A stretch of 43,209 nucleotides of DNA from a virus (IMGVR_UViG_3300045988_076668:1-43209); one strand, 5' to 3'. Counted from the first letter of the stretch, positions 2,269-9,137 are shown. The notes: a model not told the origin generated them from the sequence alone. Numbers and translations: made by a program.

Positions 2269-3360
2269 ATGAAAAAGAAAATGCCAACCGCGACAAAGCT
2301 TCCAAGCGGCTCCTGGCGCTGCCTGGTGACCGTAAATGGCAAAAGGGTATCTATTACCGCTGACACACCAAGTGAGGCTCAGGCGAAAGCTATCGCCCTG
2401 AGAGCGGGCCTTATAGATAAGAAGAAGGAAAAGAGAGGGGTGAAAACACTTTCAGAGGCAATCGATGAATATATAGATCAGAAATTTAACGTATTGTCTC
2501 CAGCTACCGTTCGAGGGTACAACACAATCAAGAGGAACAGGTTCAAGACGATTATAAGCAGAAATATTTTTGATCTAAGCAAAGACGACGTTCAAAGAGC
2601 AATAAACGATGAAGTTAAGGTCGCTTCGGCTAAAACAATCAAAAACGCCTATGGGCTTGTTCGGACTGTCTTAGAGGCAAATGAAATTTATATCCGAGGA
2701 ATTAAGCTCCCCCAAATCATAAAACCAAATAAAAAATATATTCAAGAGGAAGAAATATCAAAGTTATTAGAAGCGATCAAGGGTGACCAATGTGAAGCTG
2801 CCATTCTTCTCGCGTTGTGTACTGGTATGCGTAGATCCGAAATCATTGGACTGTGCTCAGACTGTATAAATGTAGAAGCTTGCACGGTAACTGTCCGGCG
2901 AAAGATGGTCCCAAATGATAAAAACAAAATGGTTTTAGTCGGTGGCGCCAAAAATGAAATGTCACAGAGAACTGTAATCTGTCCAAAGTTTGTTATGGAT
3001 AAAATAGAACCATTGATTAAAGAAAATAAGACAACACCGATATTTAAGTTTCATCCTGATACGCTGCGAAAACATATTCATAAAGCCTGTGAAATCGCCG
3101 GGATAACAGATACGGCAACCCATGGGCTTAGGCATACAAACGCCGCATTGATGAAATATCTCGGCGTAGACGATGCCCATGCAATGCAGCGCGGCGGGTG
3201 GTCGAGCGAAGCAACTTATAAAAAAACCTACTCTTATGTATTCGAATCTGCGGCCAAAACAGGGGATGAAAGCATAAACAACTACTTTGACAGTCTTACA
3301 AACAGAGAAAAAATCGCACACGAAACTGCACACGAAATTCTAAAACACATTGATAAATAA
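2269..3360 (+). CDS. int: Tyrosine site-specific integrase (363 aa)
   Basis: Track ORF. Catalytic-region motifs TGMRRSE, HGLRHTNAALM and a C-terminal Tyr region (TYKKTYSYV). Adjacent to attP. Confidence 0.9.
   Translation: MKKKMPTATKLPSGSWRCLVTVNGKRVSITADTPSEAQAKAIALRAGLIDKKKEKRGVKTLSEAIDEYIDQKFNVLSPATVRGYNTIKRNRFKTIISRNIFDLSKDDVQRAINDEVKVASAKTIKNAYGLVRTVLEANEIYIRGIKLPQIIKPNKKYIQEEEISKLLEAIKGDQCEAAILLALCTGMRRSEIIGLCSDCINVEACTVTVRRKMVPNDKNKMVLVGGAKNEMSQRTVICPKFVMDKIEPLIKENKTTPIFKFHPDTLRKHIHKACEIAGITDTATHGLRHTNAALMKYLGVDDAHAMQRGGWSSEATYKKTYSYVFESAAKTGDESINNYFDSLTNREKIAHETAHEILKHIDK
3316..3337 (+). repeat. Two direct GCACACGAAA copies (candidate integrase arm-type sites, left arm)
   Basis: GCACACGAAA at 3316-3325 and 3328-3337, inside the 3' end of int, about 50 bp left of the attP core. 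Confidence 0.5.
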
Positions 3361-3384: not shown

Positions 3385-3409
3385 GGTTCAAATCCCTCCT
3401 TCTCCGCCA
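3385..3409 (+). other. attP core: 25-nt 3' fragment of a tRNA-Ser-like gene
   Basis: GGTTCAAATCCCTCCTTCTCCGCCA reads as T-loop, 3' T-stem, 3' acceptor strand CTTCTCC, discriminator G and CCA. The sequence 5' of it cannot complete a cloverleaf, so it is a fragment and not a gene. Confidence 0.7.
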
Positions 3410-3576: not shown

Positions 3577-4314
3577 TTAATGTTTCACGACATACTCATA
3601 ATAGGAAGCCAGCTTGTCTTTTACTGCATCCTGGTCGTCAAGCCAAAAAGCTTTTGCAAAACTAATATATGCATCAATATTGTTTATTCCCAGCTTCTTA
3701 AAGACTTCGGACAAATCACTATAAGTTGCATTCATGGCAACCTGAAATTTAATGGGGTCCTCTCTTATTCCGTGCTTTTCCATGATGCTACGGATTTGTT
3801 CCATATTCCAGTGAGGCCCACGTGTCCCGTCACTGTTTTCCATTTTCCTCATCCACTCATGAGCAATGGATTCATTGAGTTCTGGAACAAACATTGAACG
3901 AGCACCGCCTACCAGATTGTTTTCTCCGTGCATTCTGTCTCCCTCTCTCTTACTCGGGAAATTTACAACTGAACCACCGTGCATGTTTGTTTCGTAGTTA
4001 CGTTCAAATCCAATAGGACGGGTGTACGATCTATCGTCAGAATAATTCATGCCCATATAGTTATTCTGAGGTTCGTATCTCATGTCAGACCAGTCGCGCA
4101 TTCTCTCAGAGTAATAAGGCGGGAGCCAATGACTGTTTACATCATAATCTCCCATTCTGCTTTGTGGTGCATAGCGGCCGTTGTCATAATGTTCACGCCC
4201 TCTACGATCTCGGAACTTATCTTCGGGACCATATTCCATTCGATATCCCCTATTATATTCCTGATCTCGTTTATTCCCTCCGGCCATCATGAGCATTTTA
4301 GTCGAACGTTTCAT
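3577..4314 (-). CDS. Cargo protein (245 aa): R/D/Y/N-rich low-complexity N-half, globular C-terminal domain; unknown function
   Basis: Track ORF 3577..4362. ATG 4314 lies 8 nt after AAGGAGG. Sequence includes ...RDRRGREHYDNGRYAPQSRMGDYD... and ...GPHWNMEQIRSIMEKHGIREDP...YYEYVVKH. Confidence 0.7.
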   Translation of the reverse strand: MKRSTKMLMMAGGNKRDQEYNRGYRMEYGPEDKFRDRRGREHYDNGRYAPQSRMGDYDVNSHWLPPYYSERMRDWSDMRYEPQNNYMGMNYSDDRSYTRPIGFERNYETNMHGGSVVNFPSKREGDRMHGENNLVGGARSMFVPELNESIAHEWMRKMENSDGTRGPHWNMEQIRSIMEKHGIREDPIKFQVAMNATYSDLSEVFKKLGINNIDAYISFAKAFWLDDQDAVKDKLASYYEYVVKH

Positions 4315-4327
4315 TCGTTTTACCTCC

Positions 4328-4723
4328 TTAAGCAGTGGGTGCGGGCGCTGCCCCGCCATCAATAATCAATAAATTGTTATCAGGAGAACAACAAGGATTT
4401 CCTATCATACGAAACGAACCGCCGGTCGGCGTGGTAGAAACACAGACAGAATAACGTGTACGGGTTCTAATGCCCGCCGCAGTTACTTGAGAACAGTTGC
4501 GCTTAGTCAGTGGATATAATTCGGTCCCAGAACCAATGGTAATATAGACAGGAGCATTAATAGTTGTTGCCGTAGGTATCGTTTGCGCGACAACAATGCA
4601 ATACTTCTCCCTGTTTTTATAACTACCAGCCGGGAGGTTGATTTCAAGATTGCCGCCAGTGAATGCGACAGCCTGGGAAATTACTAAGTTATCGCAAAGC
4701 TTACATACAGGTTTGCAAGACAT
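4328..4723 (-). CDS. Cargo protein (131 aa), Cys-rich termini; unknown function
   Basis: Track ORF. GGAGG 7 nt upstream. Starts MSCKPVCKLCDN and ends near NPCCSPDN. Confidence 0.7.
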   Translation of the reverse strand: MSCKPVCKLCDNLVISQAVAFTGGNLEINLPAGSYKNREKYCIVVAQTIPTATTINAPVYITIGSGTELYPLTKRNCSQVTAAGIRTRTRYSVCVSTTPTGGSFRMIGNPCCSPDNNLLIIDGGAAPAPTA

Positions 4724-4735
4724 AATTTTACCTCC

Positions 4736-4772
4736 AAAAAAATCAAGGGCGGCAGACTATTGCCCGCCGCCC
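4736..4772 (-). terminator. Rho-independent terminator after the 247-aa cargo gene
   Basis: The minus strand reads GGGCGGC...GCCGCCC followed by TTGATTTTTTT. The SD of the next gene follows directly. Confidence 0.65.
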
Positions 4773-4822
4773 GAAGTAATCACGGCAAAGCCGGAATATA
4801 AAAGTGATTTCTTCTAATCAGT

Positions 4823-5566
4823 TTAGCACCCACAGCCACAACCGTTTCCGGTCCCGCAGAAGGGATAAGGCGCAGGAACCTGATATGCCGGGACCGGCAT
4901 CGGATTGATACGACGGATCAGTTCAGAAGTCTGTGCATCCAATGTGGCCGTCAAATAGCTGTTCTGGCTGGCCTGGGATGCTGCTAACTTAAGAGCCTGA
5001 TTCTCAGACTGGAGAGAATCAATCTTAGACTGAACCATGAAATCCATCAGACCGCGATAGTTTGCGTTCTGGTTGTCAATGATATCGCGGGTGCTATTCT
5101 GAATGGTATTTCTGGTATCGCATGCCTGAGTGGCCATGTCATAGCGAACACCCTGAATCGCATTCTGTGTCTGGCAGCAACAATCCTGGAGGTTATAGCC
5201 CAGCTGGCACATAGACTTGTCTACGCCACTGAAACCCTGAAGCATTGCAACATTGGTATTGTTGAATCCACCGGTAATTGCATTGTTCAGCGCATAGGTT
5301 GAATCACAAATACCCTGCTGGATGTTAGAAATACCACGCTCAACGCCATTAAAAGCAATTGCTTCATTCACATCTGCACGAGTGGCATAACCCTGGAACC
5401 CAGGGCTGTTAGAGCCGCCGCCAAAACCGCCCCAACCATTACCGCCCCAGATCATAGCCAAGATAATAATGGCCCACAGACCATCTCCCCAGCCGCCGAA
5501 GCCACTGTTGTTGCCGTTTCCGCTATCACTGCCAAGAGCGTAACCAGTTGCAAAATCATTATCCAT
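4823..5566 (-). CDS. Cargo protein (247 aa): Gly/Trp-rich N-terminus with one hydrophobic helix, Q/N-rich middle, CGTGNGCGCGC tail; unknown function
   Basis: Track ORF. AAGGAG 7 nt upstream. Contains GLWAIIILAMIWGGNGWGGFGGG and a CCC cluster (LQDCCCQ). Confidence 0.75.
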   Translation of the reverse strand: MDNDFATGYALGSDSGNGNNSGFGGWGDGLWAIIILAMIWGGNGWGGFGGGSNSPGFQGYATRADVNEAIAFNGVERGISNIQQGICDSTYALNNAITGGFNNTNVAMLQGFSGVDKSMCQLGYNLQDCCCQTQNAIQGVRYDMATQACDTRNTIQNSTRDIIDNQNANYRGLMDFMVQSKIDSLQSENQALKLAASQASQNSYLTATLDAQTSELIRRINPMPVPAYQVPAPYPFCGTGNGCGCGC

Positions 5567-5589
5567 TTGTTTTCTCCTTATCAGTTATT

Positions 5590-5601
5590 CACACCGGTGT
5601 G
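5590..5601. promoter_or_regulatory. Perfect 12-bp palindrome CACACCGGTGTG upstream of the 247-aa cargo gene
   Basis: Read directly in the 102-bp gap between the 81-aa and 247-aa genes. Function unknown. Confidence 0.3.
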
Positions 5602-5668
5602 CACCCCGGATGCGTACAAAACACATCCAGTTTTTTTCAAGACCCGGAAACTGATAGGGAGTTTTTAT

Positions 5669-5914
5669 TTATCTATTACTTGGGTTGTTTATACCAAGTT
5701 GTCTGGCAATGTCATTGATAGATACGCCACGTTCTTTGGCCATATTTTCTGCCATTGTTTTTAATTGCTGAGGATTCTTTCCTTGAATCATTTTTAATGC
5801 TTGAGCCACTTGTGGATTTTGCCCCGCCATTTTTTGAAGTAGTTGCATAGGGTCTCCACCGCCCCGCATTGTTTGCACAAGCATCATAAGAGGGTTATTC
5901 ATTGGTGCTATCAT
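5669..5914 (-). CDS. Cargo protein (81 aa), Q/M/N-rich; unknown function
   Basis: Track ORF. GGGGGAAAG SD 7 nt upstream. 20-nt overlap with the upstream gene. Confidence 0.65.
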   Translation of the reverse strand: MIAPMNNPLMMLVQTMRGGGDPMQLLQKMAGQNPQVAQALKMIQGKNPQQLKTMAENMAKERGVSINDIARQLGINNPSNR

Positions 5915-6320
5915 TGTTCTTTCCCCCGCCTTGTTTTAACTGTTCTACTTCTTGTCTAAGCAAGTTTAATTCATCCCTTGTTGCAAATTGATTTGTTTGC
6001 TGGAGGGGCGGATCTTGTTCATATCGGAATGAAAGAAAATCTGAGGAGCCGGTATTCTGATTAAATCTTTTGATGTATACCATTCCATGGCCTAAATCTG
6101 GCATAATGGTGCCAGGGCTAAAATAATCAGTCTGGACAGCGACAGCTTCCTCTCTGCTTGTTACCGGACGACAGGTATATCCATTTTGTTGGGTTTGCAT
6201 TGAAGGTTGCTGTGGCTGTTGTGGTATCTGTGACCCAATATAAGTTTGCGGGGACTGATATTGCATCTGCTGCCCTTGGGGATAAAATTGATAGGGATTG
6301 TATCCATAAACTCCAGCCAT
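5895..6320 (-). CDS. Cargo protein (141 aa), Q/P/Y-rich N-terminus; unknown function
   Basis: Track ORF 5895..6395. ATG 6320 lies 7 nt after GAGGG. Starts MAGVYGYNPYQFYPQGQQMQYQSPQ. Confidence 0.65.
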   Translation of the reverse strand: MAGVYGYNPYQFYPQGQQMQYQSPQTYIGSQIPQQPQQPSMQTQQNGYTCRPVTSREEAVAVQTDYFSPGTIMPDLGHGMVYIKRFNQNTGSSDFLSFRYEQDPPLQQTNQFATRDELNLLRQEVEQLKQGGGKNNDSTNE

Positions 6321-6415
6321 TCTTTTTCCCTCGCTCTTTTTTATTGACATTATCATATCAAAAAATGGATATCCGCCTGTCCAAATGAAATCCAAATTAA
6401 GGACAAATTAAATAC

Positions 6416-6445
6416 AAAAAAACTGCGGGGAATCACTCCCCGCAG
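6416..6445 (-). terminator. Rho-independent terminator after the sigma-region-4-like gene
   Basis: CTGCGGGGA-gtgat-TCCCCGCAG (9 bp) followed by TTTTTTT on the minus strand. The stem overlaps the stop codon at 6433. Confidence 0.75.
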
Positions 6446-6654
6446 TAAAAAGATTGTTCTGTTTTCTCCCGGATGTGCCGAAGGGCATTGTTTATTGTCC
6501 CTCTTGAAACATCCATCTCTGCCGCAATGGATTCAATCTGCCATCCACGACGATAAAATAAATTAAATATGGCTTTTTCTCTATCTGTTAGCCACTCACA
6601 TTTTTCCATAGAGTTTAGTTGCTCTATGCTGTAAATGTAACGAGACAGAGACAA
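6433..6654 (-). CDS. Small sigma-70 region-4 / LuxR-type HTH protein (73 aa)
   Basis: Track ORF. LTDREKAIFNLFYRRGWQIESIAAEMDVSRGTINNALRHIREK resembles sigma region 4.2 / LuxR HTH. No region 2 is present. Confidence 0.6.
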   Translation of the reverse strand: MSLSRYIYSIEQLNSMEKCEWLTDREKAIFNLFYRRGWQIESIAAEMDVSRGTINNALRHIREKTEQSFYCGE

Positions 6655-6665
6655 CCGCCCTCCTT

Positions 6666-7430
6666 TTACAGCAAGCCTAAGCGACCAAGGATAGCAATCA
6701 TCTCATCTCTTTTAGCAGGGCGCTCCGGGCTTGTACCATCCACGATGCCATTTGCCGCAGCCTTTGCCCAATGTCCCTCCTGTTGGGACCAGGCGGGCTC
6801 AGACAGCGTCTTCGCGTGGAGCTCTGCTTTCTGCATGAGCTGGTAGGCTTGTTCGTTGGTCATTTCAGAGATCAACTTTGCAATATCCATGGGTTCATCC
6901 TCTCCTTCCAGCCGCCGGTTGACCTCGGCGGCAATCTCTCCGTGCCGATTGTATAGATAATCCCCCGGGCACGCCTTGGCGGCAAACCACCGGTGAACCG
7001 TCATATTCTGCTTGTCCACCTGGCCGATCAGGGATTTATCCCCTTTCCACAGTAGTTTCTTGATCCCATTTCTCCGGCAGATATCCGTCAATAGGTCCAG
7101 CAATGCGGCGTAGGCTCTGTCTGACACCGGCCAATCCGGCGCCCCGCCGTTGTTGGCTACCTCAATGGTAATGGCCCGGTGATCGTTGGAGGCGCTGGAA
7201 GTACACCAGGACCGGTTGGCCTCCTCCACATACAGGGCAATCCGTCCGTCGCTTCCAATCCCATAATTGCTGCTGGCTTTACGAGACGGGTCAGCAAACA
7301 ATGCCCCGCAAGTCTCTACGCTGGCATTGCCTGCCATGCAGTGAACGGAAACGGTGTCGATTACGTGGTTGCGCCGCCCGGAATGGTTGGGGGATAATTT
7401 GGTGTAGGTCACAAGAGGGCTGTTACTCAT
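6666..7430 (-). CDS. Endolysin, N-acetylmuramoyl-L-alanine amidase (Amidase_2/PGRP type) with C-terminal binding region
   Basis: Track ORF. Contains VSVHCMAG...SSNYGIGSDGRI...NDHAITIEV-like motifs. Lies downstream of the holin and XhlA-like genes. Confidence 0.88.
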   Translation of the reverse strand: MSNSPLVTYTKLSPNHSGRRNHVIDTVSVHCMAGNASVETCGALFADPSRKASSNYGIGSDGRIALYVEEANRSWCTSSASNDHRAITIEVANNGGAPDWPVSDRAYAALLDLLTDICRRNGIKKLLWKGDKSLIGQVDKQNMTVHRWFAAKACPGDYLYNRHGEIAAEVNRRLEGEDEPMDIAKLISEMTNEQAYQLMQKAELHAKTLSEPAWSQQEGHWAKAAANGIVDGTSPERPAKRDEMIAILGRLGLL

Positions 7431-7530
7431 CTTTATCTTCCCCTTTTCCGTTGGTCATCTCGTCCAGCATAGATTCTGGAATATCATCTTCTGGATGTAC
7501 AACAGACAGAGGAGCATTCTTTTCTTCCAT
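7423..7530 (-). CDS. Small acidic ORF (35 aa)
   Basis: Not in track. ATG 7530 lies 6 nt after AAGGGGGA. Translation MEEKNAPLSVVHPEDDIPESMLDEMTNGKGEDKDE. Its stop overlaps the endolysin start. Confidence 0.35.
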   Translation of the reverse strand: MEEKNAPLSVVHPEDDIPESMLDEMTNGKGEDKDE

Positions 7531-7543
7531 AGGAATCCCCCTT

Positions 7544-7744
7544 TTACTTAAAAAGGTCTGCCAGTGTCTTTGTCTTAGACTTCATGTAGGAACGCTGAAT
7601 ATCATTCCATTCGTCCATTTCCTTTTCCCAGCCGGTCCAGCCCTGCTGCTGCGCATACATGCGGGAGGCAATGTCTACGTCCACGCCCTCTTTCTCGCTG
7701 ATAGCCTTGATTGCCATGCGATTCGCATAAAAACGATTTGCCAT
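7544..7744 (-). CDS. Hypothetical protein (66 aa)
   Basis: Track ORF between the holin and endolysin genes. Confidence 0.55.
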   Translation of the reverse strand: MANRFYANRMAIKAISEKEGVDVDIASRMYAQQQGWTGWEKEMDEWNDIQRSYMKSKTKTLADLFK

Positions 7745-7765
7745 ACAAATTCTCCTTCTTTGTCT

Positions 7766-7984
7766 TTAGTTTTTGTTTGCGGTTTCTTTCTCAACTTCCG
7801 GCAAGCCCTTGATACTAACCAGCAAGGACAGTATGCCGGACAGTATGGTGGCCGACAGAACCACCGGCCATTCCACCGCAGAAAGCACCGCTGCCGCCCC
7901 AATCGTGGCAATGGCGGTCTCTGCCATGGTCTTGATTGCACGGATTCCCGCCGCTTTCCACCAGGCTTTCCATTTCTCACTCAT
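7766..7984 (-). CDS. Holin (about 72 aa, two predicted TM helices)
   Basis: Track ORF 7766..7993. ATG 7984 lies 6 nt after GAGGGGGTG. Hydrophobic stretches AIATIGAAAVLSAV and VVLSATILSGILSLLV with a charged C-terminus. Confidence 0.7.
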   Translation of the reverse strand: MSEKWKAWWKAAGIRAIKTMAETAIATIGAAAVLSAVEWPVVLSATILSGILSLLVSIKGLPEVEKETANKN

Positions 7985-7999
7985 TCCCTTCACCCCCTC

Positions 8000-8350
8000 T
8001 CACAGCCCGATTTTTGCCAGCAGAAACGCAATCACTGCCGCGAAAACAGCCCAGATTGCTTTATCAGCCAACCCTTCCCACCGGCGTGCGGGCTTGATCT
8101 GGATCTCACTCACCTGGCTGAGTGCCGATGCGATTTTGGAAGACATTTCATCCAGCTTGTCCAGAATCTGAACATACTGTTCGTCCCGGCGTGCGCTCTC
8201 AGTTTCCAGGGCCCGGATGCGGTCATACATCTCCTTATGGGTCTGCCGGGCCGCATCCAAATGGCTGTTCAGAGACTTCTCCAACATGTTAGCCTTTTGC
8301 ATCCCCAAGCATTCATTCCCGGGGTTAAAGGTACACTTGTCCATGGGCAT
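8000..8350 (-). CDS. XhlA-like lysis-associated protein (coiled coil plus C-terminal TM)
   Basis: Track ORF. C-terminal anchor AIWAVFAAVIAFLLAKIGL. Lies immediately upstream of the holin gene. Confidence 0.6.
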   Translation of the reverse strand: MPMDKCTFNPGNECLGMQKANMLEKSLNSHLDAARQTHKEMYDRIRALETESARRDEQYVQILDKLDEMSSKIASALSQVSEIQIKPARRWEGLADKAIWAVFAAVIAFLLAKIGL

Positions 8351-8383
8351 AACAGCCCTCCTCTCTCTGTGTGGGATGGTTCG

Positions 8384-8854
8384 TCAGGGTTCCACTTCCT
8401 CCCAAAACTCCGGGCTTGTCTCCGGGGACCAGGTGTTGGTGTCAATCTTGCTGCGCCAGGTTTTGCCATCTGCGGTACAGCAATCCCCTTTGGCGTAGGG
8501 GGAAGTGGAGAGGGAGAGGAAGGGCAGCGCCTTGTCCGGGTCAGTGGACCAGACAAACCCCCACTGGGCGGGCAGCTCCTCCGACTCCTGGGGATAGATT
8601 TCACTGTCGTAGACCTGGAGGAGCCGAACCACCCGCCCGGCGCTGGACCGGCAGACAAAGCCATCTTTCTGGCCTGCCTTGCGCTCCAGCATGTTTTTGG
8701 CAGCCCTGGCCGCCTGGAAGTCTGGGATATACTCCTCCGCAGCACAGAGTTCCGTGCCGGTCATGGAGAGGGATTCTGCTTGCAAGTTGACTGCGGCAGA
8801 TTTCCCCGCCCGGCGCAGGGTATCCAAAACAAACTCTTTTTCAGTCAACGTCAT
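8384..8854 (-). CDS. Hypothetical protein (156 aa), possible carbohydrate-binding C-terminus
   Basis: Track ORF, chosen over overlapping alternative-frame ORFs by normal composition. Tail ...YAKGDCCTADGKTWRSKIDTNTWSPETSPEFW resembles CBM5/12-type repeats (weak). Confidence 0.55.
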   Translation of the reverse strand: MTLTEKEFVLDTLRRAGKSAAVNLQAESLSMTGTELCAAEEYIPDFQAARAAKNMLERKAGQKDGFVCRSSAGRVVRLLQVYDSEIYPQESEELPAQWGFVWSTDPDKALPFLSLSTSPYAKGDCCTADGKTWRSKIDTNTWSPETSPEFWEEVEP

Positions 8855-9137
8855 TCACTCCTTCTCGAATTGCTGCCGCCATAGCGCCCCAGGTGACGGG
8901 TTCCTCCGGCTCTTCCGGCGGGAGGTCGGGGTGGTCTGCTTCATAGGCGTCCAGCGCCTCCTGGTTGGTCTCCAGGCTTGTCACAGCACCGTCTTCCACA
9001 GTCAAGGTCACAAACCCCTTTGCCGCAAGATAGGGGCTCAGGAGATCGTCAGGTAGGGTCACACAGTTTGGGAAAGGTTGTCCCATGGGGTTGCCGTGGT
9101 TGCCGGTCTCGTTCGGACTTGAGTTGATGTAATACAT
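8841..9137 (-). CDS. Hypothetical protein (98 aa) downstream of the fibre genes
   Basis: Track ORF. Confidence 0.55.
   Translation of the reverse strand: MYYINSSPNETGNHGNPMGQPFPNCVTLPDDLLSPYLAAKGFVTLTVEDGAVTSLETNQEALDAYEADHPDLPPEEPEEPVTWGAMAAAIREGVNDVD

Follow-up and report, generated by a model that had tools for sequence, protein, structure and literature searches.

Phage morons, exemplified by bor and lom of lambda and gp15 of HK97, are among the closest described counterparts of the element analyzed here, a cassette of six genes (g1 to g6 in the direction of transcription) at positions 3577-6654 on the minus strand of IMGVR_UViG_3300045988_076668. The window, as we use the term, is the whole analyzed stretch, a complete virus record of 43,209 bp with direct terminal repeats. 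Like morons, the cassette is extra DNA beside the lysis genes and the attachment site, bounded by terminators, dispensable and swapped between near-identical phages. Unlike them, it holds five to six genes rather than one, and the unit is kept across phages of different phyla, crAss-like phages included.

Two family entries without function, Pfam DUF7841 (PF25223) and phrog_16490, have clear members in g6 and g4, respectively, although neither captures the multi-gene module or its RNA elements. A literature search found no paper mentioning DUF7841, PF25223, phrog_16490, C3_41T2LP or csAssE-Sib. Further comparisons are offered by proteins of lysis, namely the spanins (Rz/Rz1 of lambda, LysB/LysC of P2) and the T4 holin T with its antiholin RI. 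The g4 protein resembles these in its predicted N-terminal membrane helix, its long helical Cys domain, its Pro-rich end and its position beside lysis genes. It differs in having no sequence match to them and no lipoprotein partner, and its closest hosts are single-membrane bacteria (Clostridia); moreover, crAss-like phages with the module also carry a LysB-like gene of their own. Translational riboswitches and RNA thermometers are comparable in that a conserved helix pairs with the g4 ribosome-binding site, but the g4 leader has no Rfam match and is limited to one clade of the module.

Among uncharacterized gene sets of human-gut phages, this module is one of the commonest, and it crosses host phyla. 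Knowing its function would allow genes to be annotated in a large fraction of gut viromes and could bring to light a stage of infection that model phages lack. Our favored reading, which we hold tentatively, is that the operon encodes a late-expressed assembly, anchored in the membrane by g4 and accessory to lysis, release or envelope handling.

A conserved and exchangeable operon

We read the open reading frames (ORFs) and Shine-Dalgarno (SD) sequences directly from the sequence. All six genes lie on the minus strand: g1 (6654-6433, 73 amino acids) has a TTG start after AAGGAGGG; g2 (6320-5895, 141 amino acids) is followed by g3 (5914-5669, 81 amino acids), which overlaps the end of g2 by 20 nt; g4 (5566-4823, 247 amino acids) and g5 (4723-4328, 131 amino acids) come next; and g6 (4314-3577, 245 amino acids) starts with ATG after AAGGAGG. 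Gene calling performed independently on other contigs gave identical products and lengths for the cassette genes, so that the six minus-strand genes with good SDs proposed in the original prediction are borne out.

As far as sequence comparison can tell, g2-g6 is one copy of an autonomous, exchangeable accessory operon of many gut viruses. Across 83 related loci, comprising 80 IMG/VR relatives of g4 and three GenBank gut phages, the g2-g6 order was kept in 75-79. Co-occurrence across phages, which had been suggested as a check on the cassette, is therefore found for these five genes. The cassette is also not the private cargo of one phage. It is a very common module, in which the g5 family alone comprises 4,841 clusters at 90% identity.

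A census with hidden Markov models (HMMs) covered 84 loci, 80 from bacterial genomes and four reference loci. Nearly all contained g2 and g4 homologs, adjoining one another with a small Met/Gln-rich ORF between them. The HMM of g3, itself a soluble Met/Gln-rich protein of 81 amino acids, matched about half of the loci, and a divergent M/Q-rich ORF occupied that slot elsewhere. After g4 came either g5 or an alternative beta protein of ~140 amino acids, which we call g5', and then either g6 or an alternative helical protein, g6', with a GYSRD-type low-complexity stretch. The pair g5' (MAEYT..QTV..HREGSG) and g6' replaces g5 and g6 in about half of cassettes, for example at L002 6757-7634, L100 5742-6713 and L133 4810-5984. 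A conserved extra gene of ~120 amino acids (M.YKFYNANARG.F.NDCT.RAIS..), with no Pfam match, follows the cassette in Bacilli, Gastranaerophilaceae and Prevotella loci (L122 4130-4504, L125 5751-6107, L127 5697-6050 and L133 5984-6352).

Close relatives of the window differ in whether they carry the cassette and in which version. Among phages with a 90-98% identical endolysin, seven had the window-type cassette, 13 had other versions and several had none within 5 kb. At the nucleotide level, homology to the window ends exactly at the endolysin stop (6665) in L447, L475 and L470, at 6694, ~30 nt inside the endolysin 3' end, in L471 and L474, and at 6350, just past g1 and its terminator, in L449. 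These breakpoints, together with presence and absence among close relatives, indicate that the module is exchangeable and dispensable and that g1 can travel with different versions of it.

Among g2-g6, only g4 and g6 matched a curated family, and neither family has a known function. No match in Pfam, PHROG or NCBIfam was found for g2, g3 or g5, and profile searches of PDB sequences with g2, g4, g5 and g6 returned nothing significant. In PADLOC-DB, g2-g6 matched no defense model, and the helix-turn-helix (HTH) of g1 alone matched HTH-bearing models. No profile search assigned the genes to ordinary known families, an assignment that would have spoken against the original prediction, and its reading of a non-virion, non-replication accessory cassette is supported.

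The g4 protein, its leader RNA and its terminator

The g4 protein, a member of phrog_16490 (E 3.6e-73, residues 17-247), appears to be a membrane protein and the centerpiece of the module. It has a hydrophobic helix (residues ~29-41) flanked by Gly and Trp, then a long Q/N/T-rich region, a Pro-rich segment and a CGCGC tail; the CCC cluster and the C-terminal CGC are invariant in the homolog alignment. The likeness to small YjcZ-type peptides noted in the original prediction was not recovered, as no NCBIfam model, YjcZ/tiny_TM_bacill (TIGR01732) included, matched g4 at E ≤ 0.1. A strongly hydrophobic segment occurs only in g4. It is absent from g2, g3 and g6, and we read the moderately hydrophobic N-terminal stretch of g5 as a beta strand. 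Judged from sequence, with no signal-peptide predictor run, none of the six proteins has a signal peptide with a lipobox.

We examined the charges around the hydrophobic segment in 170 g4 homologs. The N flank is acidic (mean -1.55) and the C flank neutral, and in 84% of the homologs the C flank is the more positive of the two. The charge rule favors an N-out/C-in orientation, and all of the assembly would then be on the cytoplasmic side. The absence of signal peptides from the soluble parts likewise suggests that the assembly may sit there. Two of these parts are g2 and g3. The g2 protein is soluble, with a Q/P/Y-rich N-terminus that is not hydrophobic, a conserved domain of ~55 amino acids and a short helical tail, and it has no match in the PDB.

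These properties would also suit a cytoplasmic organizer, in which g4 nucleates a condensate or scaffold, made up of the Q/P/Y-, M/Q- and R/D/Y-rich proteins, on the inner side of the membrane. Low complexity in g2, g3 and the N-terminal half of g6, partner proteins without signal peptides, flank charges favoring N-out/C-in and the broad host span all agree with such a role. Its basis is composition, however, and the charge signal is weak, and we consider it very unlikely. Compared with this scaffold, the membrane-anchored assembly accessory to lysis, release or envelope handling remains the reading that we favor.

The spacer between g3 and g4 contains a leader RNA of ~90 nt (5574..5661, minus strand), for which we built a covariance model, R1. 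The predicted structure has an outer helix, P1, in which CUCC.. pairs with the g4 SD (AAGGAG); a hairpin of 3-4 bp, P2, closing the invariant loop UCUUGA..AAAAA; and a further hairpin, P3a. P1 forms in all 18 sequence variants, and eight of its 13 pairs show changes on both sides. On the window the model scores 73 bits (E 9e-13). It finds 28 copies of the leader, among them copies outside the model-building set (L086, L087, L279, L280, L283, L291, L312-L314 and L324). Overall, 89% of leader cells are paired, compared with 34-54% when partners are slid by 1-3 columns, and 17 of 24 leader pairs show compensatory change, values reached by none of 500 shuffles; these counts are tilted in favor of the model, to which the alignment was fitted and whose structure was derived from the same sequences. 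The leader is thus predicted to be an SD-sequestering helix maintained by compensatory changes. Nucleotide identity in the spacers is about equal to that in neighboring coding DNA (0.57-0.76 vs. 0.69-0.76).

No Rfam family matched the leader or the region, whether at the gathering score or at E ≤ 10, apart from a freshwater-2 match (E 1.6) that we rejected because it consisted mostly of the SD. A scan of viral contigs with a degenerate DNA pattern (L164-L278) was too loose, gave mostly chance matches and was disregarded. The 12-bp palindrome at 5590-5601, CACACCGGTGTG, which the original prediction had listed among signs of regulation, is exact and unique in the window, where about one match would be expected by chance at two mismatches. 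It lies within P3a and is best explained as the hairpin part of a conserved leader rather than as an operator.

An internal intrinsic terminator follows g4 on the minus strand (4772-4747, feature span 4737..4772). It has an 11-bp stem with nine GC pairs and a T-run, and its U-run leads directly into the g5 SD. Of the 169 distinct homologous loci compared, 101 have a terminator-like hairpin after the g4 stop, against 6% in shuffles; the corresponding counts after other genes are 0/160 for g2, 1/98 for g3, 0/77 for g5 and 21/64 for g6. Lying between g4 and g5, the terminator implies that g5 and g6 are made only from read-through transcripts, and g4 should consequently be in excess. In L024, L050 and L074, an ORF of 75 amino acids (MHTIDEVKQELIEHLY..) lies between the conserved terminator and g5, ~230 nt past the terminator, which remains upstream of the inserted ORF. 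The leader and the internal terminator are two simple experimental handles.

The g5 and g6 proteins

The g5 protein (131 amino acids) has an invariant N-terminal C-X3-C-X2-C motif. In loci whose g4 is 70-73% identical, g5 is 82-85% identical, compared with 64-75% for g3, 33-43% for g2 and 38-41% for g6, which marks g5 as the most constrained part of the module. We utilized AlphaFold2 to predict its structure and obtained an eight-strand beta sandwich at moderate confidence (predicted local distance difference test score, pLDDT, 71.6; predicted template-modeling score, pTM, 0.65). When compared with the PDB by Foldseek, the best match of this model was 9b45_2, a chain of the Pa193 phage baseplate/tail-fiber complex, and the match was weak (E 0.18). 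Searches of BFVD returned the protein's own family and then the C-terminal ends of proteins of 400-900 amino acids (E 1e-4 to 1e-3), named as tail fibers, collagen-repeat proteins or hyaluronidase fibers. The predicted fold thus resembles the C-terminal knobs of tail fibers such as those of Pseudomonas phage Pa193, with the difference that g5 is free-standing at 131 amino acids and has no fiber shaft.

The likeness to fiber knobs raises the possibility that the products are virion-associated, with g5 as a fiber-tip or decoration protein and the others as assembly factors. In Dulem virus 35, head genes flank the cassette on both sides, and GenBank labels the g4 homologs of crAss-like phages "viral fiber" or "spike". 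On the other hand, the hydrophobic helix of g4 is of the membrane type and membranes are absent from tailed virions; near-identical phages lack the cassette or carry another version; the locus has its own HTH gene and terminators; and its position varies, recombination genes being among its neighbors. A virion role therefore seems very improbable to us, and we retain the membrane-anchored assembly as the favored function.

The g6 protein belongs to DUF7841 (E 6.9e-30; 104.1 bits against a cut-off of 25.2; residues 140-240). Its AlphaFold2 model shows a five-helix bundle at residues 145-245, with pLDDT above 90, preceded by a disordered segment (residues 1-140). This R/D/Y-rich arm carries an almost invariant motif of 17 residues, FRDRRGREHYDNGRYAP, which is duplicated in some homologs. 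The best PDB matches of the DUF7841 fold by Foldseek (E 1.7) were retroviral matrix proteins with root-mean-square deviations of 9-10, and these were rejected as chance; g6 thus has no PDB match by sequence or by fold.

In BFVD, the g5 model also matches a "DUF7841 domain-containing protein" of 294 amino acids from a crAss-like virus. Judging from the models, this chain resembles a natural fusion that joins a g5-like part to a g6-like one. A physical link between g5 and g6 is suggested by this fusion of both folds and by the adjacency of g6, g4 and g5 homologs in the crAss-like phage cr4_1.

Host range and crAss-like copies

The closest bacterial carriers are Clostridia, namely Agathobaculum desmolans ATCC 43058, Butyricicoccus, Muriventricola and metagenome-assembled genomes (MAGs) of Oscillospiraceae and Lachnospiraceae. 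The g4 of A. desmolans ATCC 43058, a cultured strain, is 74% identical to that of the window. The module was also found in a 557-kb Prevotella scaffold, a Paludibacteraceae genome, a Collinsella MAG and a Gastranaerophilaceae MAG. A g4 homolog is carried by Bacteroides phage C3_41T2LP, obtained from plaques on B. uniformis, and a phrog_16490 gene by a virus record that gives Methanomassiliicoccales as its host. This wide span makes a spore-specific role very unlikely and weakens a purely lysogenic one. Hosts with a single membrane, with a double membrane and from the archaea favor a universal target or one of the phage's own.

The host span bears on a role as a spore-coat or exosporium add-on, which the original prediction had raised from composition. 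That g4 and g5 are Cys-rich and that the closest hosts are Clostridia would fit such a role, as would the g5' protein of some cassettes, exemplified by the Prevotella locus L133, which resembles the BclA C-terminal domain (PF18573) of BclA/ExsFA at 17.8 bits, below the cut-off of 38 (E 0.003). The g5 of the window, by contrast, has no BclA_C match and no collagen-like region, the top 50 PDB matches of its fold include neither a BclA nor an ExsFA chain, and g4 lacks a YjcZ/TIGR01732 match. With core genes in Bacteroides, Prevotella, Paludibacteraceae, crAss-like viruses and the methanogen-assigned virus, we regard the spore-coat reading as close to refuted.

DUF7841 and g4 homologs occur in many crAss-like phages. 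In cr4_1, HMMs identified g6-like (3e-31), g4-like (9e-22) and g5-like (1.6e-9) genes, adjacent to one another, after the holin gene. In cr125_1, the order is holin, LysB-like gene, DUF7841, g4-like gene and an ORF of 142 amino acids. No integrase was seen in the stretches of crAss-like phages that we inspected. Many annotated coding sequences of cr4_1 (L439) contain in-frame stop codons under table 11, which fits stop-codon reassignment in that crAss-like lineage.

Genome position and proposed function

Nearly all genes of the window are on the minus strand, where replication genes come first and those for packaging, head, tail and finally lysis follow; the plus strand carries the integrase (2269-3360) and the repressor side. 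The holin gene is followed by an Amidase_2 endolysin (6666-7430, Pfam) and then directly by the cassette. The lysis block at 7000-9000 has a GC content of 52-58%, compared with ~45% in its flanks; this and the end of the relatives' homology at the endolysin stop point to module mosaicism.

A bacterial contig of 1.54 Mb (L442, GCA_964261755.1) carries the same six-gene cassette in integrated form. Between the g6 stop and ~3388 its sequence is the same as that of the window (junction at L442 4739-4940), beyond which the contig continues as the remainder of a tRNA gene and then as ordinary bacterial genes. The phage is therefore temperate, with the phage attachment site (attP) at ~3385-3409. The attP core (3385..3409) is the 3' end of the tRNA gene and, once the prophage is integrated, bounds the module on its outer side. 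One end of the prophage is thus formed by the cassette, which adjoins the tRNA attachment site, and the attP-adjacent position given in the original prediction is confirmed by this prophage-host junction. The integrated copy provides a natural lysogen for experiments. Partial tRNA matches also lie downstream of the cassette in L018 and L150.

This position is what the main rival explanation would expect. According to that explanation, the cassette is a lysogenic-conversion moron, as the original prediction had it, which is expressed from its own promoter in the prophage and alters the host membrane or surface, for example in superinfection exclusion or adhesion. Its location as the last phage DNA before the host junction, the bounding terminators, a possible extended -10 element after the g1 terminator, the dispensable and mosaic nature of the cassette and the presence of a membrane protein all agree with it. 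Yet the cassette shares its strand with the late/lysis operon and follows immediately after it, g2-g6 match no PADLOC defense family, and a scan for consensus promoters was negative. The core triad, moreover, occurs after holin genes in crAss-like phages, and a g4 homolog is found in a plaque-isolated Bacteroides phage. Of the original reading, the terminators and the attP position stand, and the triad in crAss-like phages and the plaque-isolated phage weaken the rest. We consider lysogenic conversion unlikely.

For an assembly accessory to lysis, release or envelope handling, we propose the following arrangement. The operon would supply the membrane protein g4, the soluble low-complexity proteins g2 and g3, g5 as a small and probably trimeric beta sandwich resembling the distal knob of tail fibers, and g6 with its disordered arm and DUF7841 domain. 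Late in lytic growth, as the lysis genes act, the soluble parts would come together on g4 in the cytoplasmic membrane of the infected cell. The anatomy of the operon has three points at which output is dosed: the terminator after g1 insulates it from the lysis transcript, the leader of ~90 nt keeps the g4 ribosome-binding site in a helix until it is opened, and the terminator after g4 passes only read-through transcripts to g5-g6. The link to lysis is drawn from gene order: the cassette follows the holin and endolysin genes here, and DUF7841 and g4-like genes follow the holin gene in cr4_1 and cr125_1, with a g5-like gene added in cr4_1.

Several observations weigh against this proposal. The space between lysis genes and attachment site is a usual place for any cargo in temperate phages, and adjacency may mean little. 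The g4 homolog of C3_41T2LP sits among recombination genes, and that of Dulem virus 35, with its cassette, sits between head genes. The leader, with its 28 copies, is restricted to one cassette clade, in which it occurs with g3, g5 and g6, and across the family the SDs of g4 are no more paired than those of other genes. The flank charges of g4 are weak (K+R 0.35 on the N side vs. 0.48 on the C side), and since there are few basic residues on either side we take its topology as unsettled. Finally, the lysogen could make use of the possible extended -10 element that follows the g1 terminator.

A bolder version of the proposal would have a Cys- or metal-linked membrane assembly, able to work in any prokaryote, bacterial or archaeal, and specific to viruses of strict anaerobes, that times or completes the release of progeny, with an undescribed riboregulator gating synthesis of the anchor. 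Candidate Cys or metal sites are the C-X3-C-X2-C motif of g5 and the CCC cluster and CGCGC tail of g4. We regard this version as quite unlikely.

The g1 gene and the region upstream of g2

The g1 product consists of sigma-70 region 4 only (Pfam Sigma70_r4_2, 2.3e-7; Sigma70_r4, 4.9e-7; phrog_1190, 4.5e-8). Its identity as a sigma factor was rejected, as region 4 stands alone in a protein of 73 amino acids with no region 2 match; the region-4 HTH of the original prediction thus holds and its "sigma-like factor" does not. ORFs homologous to g1 were found only 10 times in 164 loci. Among the 83 related loci, g1 and the particular endolysin of the window are restricted to near-identical phages. 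In other cassette copies, unrelated small HTH genes occupy the g1 slot, and that of L078 is a Sigma70_r4 protein (1.7e-8); in L449 and L112, g1 accompanies a different version of the cassette. We suggest that g1 is a lineage-specific small DNA-binding protein filling the regulator slot of the operon.

An intrinsic terminator lies over the g1 stop codon on the minus strand (6446-6422), with an 11-bp stem, seven GC pairs and then TTTTTTT. A scan found 13 terminator-like sites, compared with 5.4 expected in shuffles. Both internal terminators of the original prediction are therefore present on the gene strand, at 6446-6422 and 4772-4747. Between the first of these and g2 lies the g2 leader (6321..6421, minus strand), in which we read by eye a possible extended -10 promoter, TGATATGAT, at 6360-6352. 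An 8-bp palindrome, GGATATCC, at 6374-6367 between the g1 terminator and this element lacks conservation in L449; it is a candidate site at which g1 or a repressor could bind. A scan of the minus strand for sigma-70-type consensus sequences found no promoter, including between the g1 terminator and g2, and the regulation of its own that had been ascribed to the cassette is thus shown for the terminators and not for a promoter. After the same terminator, L449 has a similar TGn-TAnnAT element and L112 has TATAAT. We infer that a promoter may lie between the g1 terminator and g2.

Related cassettes carry a described RNA motif in this region. RAGATH-31 (RF03101), which is not mentioned by that name in the main text of Weinberg 2017, where RAGATH does not appear, occurs ~200 nt upstream of the g2 homolog in six of them (L018 4962-5014, L020 4963-5016, L026, L034, L058 and L087). 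It belongs to the same module family, and the g4 leader is a different RNA. The window has no RAGATH-31 match at the gathering score or at E ≤ 10; g1, the terminator and a short leader stand in its place. Its recurrence upstream of g2 homologs gives this orphan Rfam motif a defined gene context.

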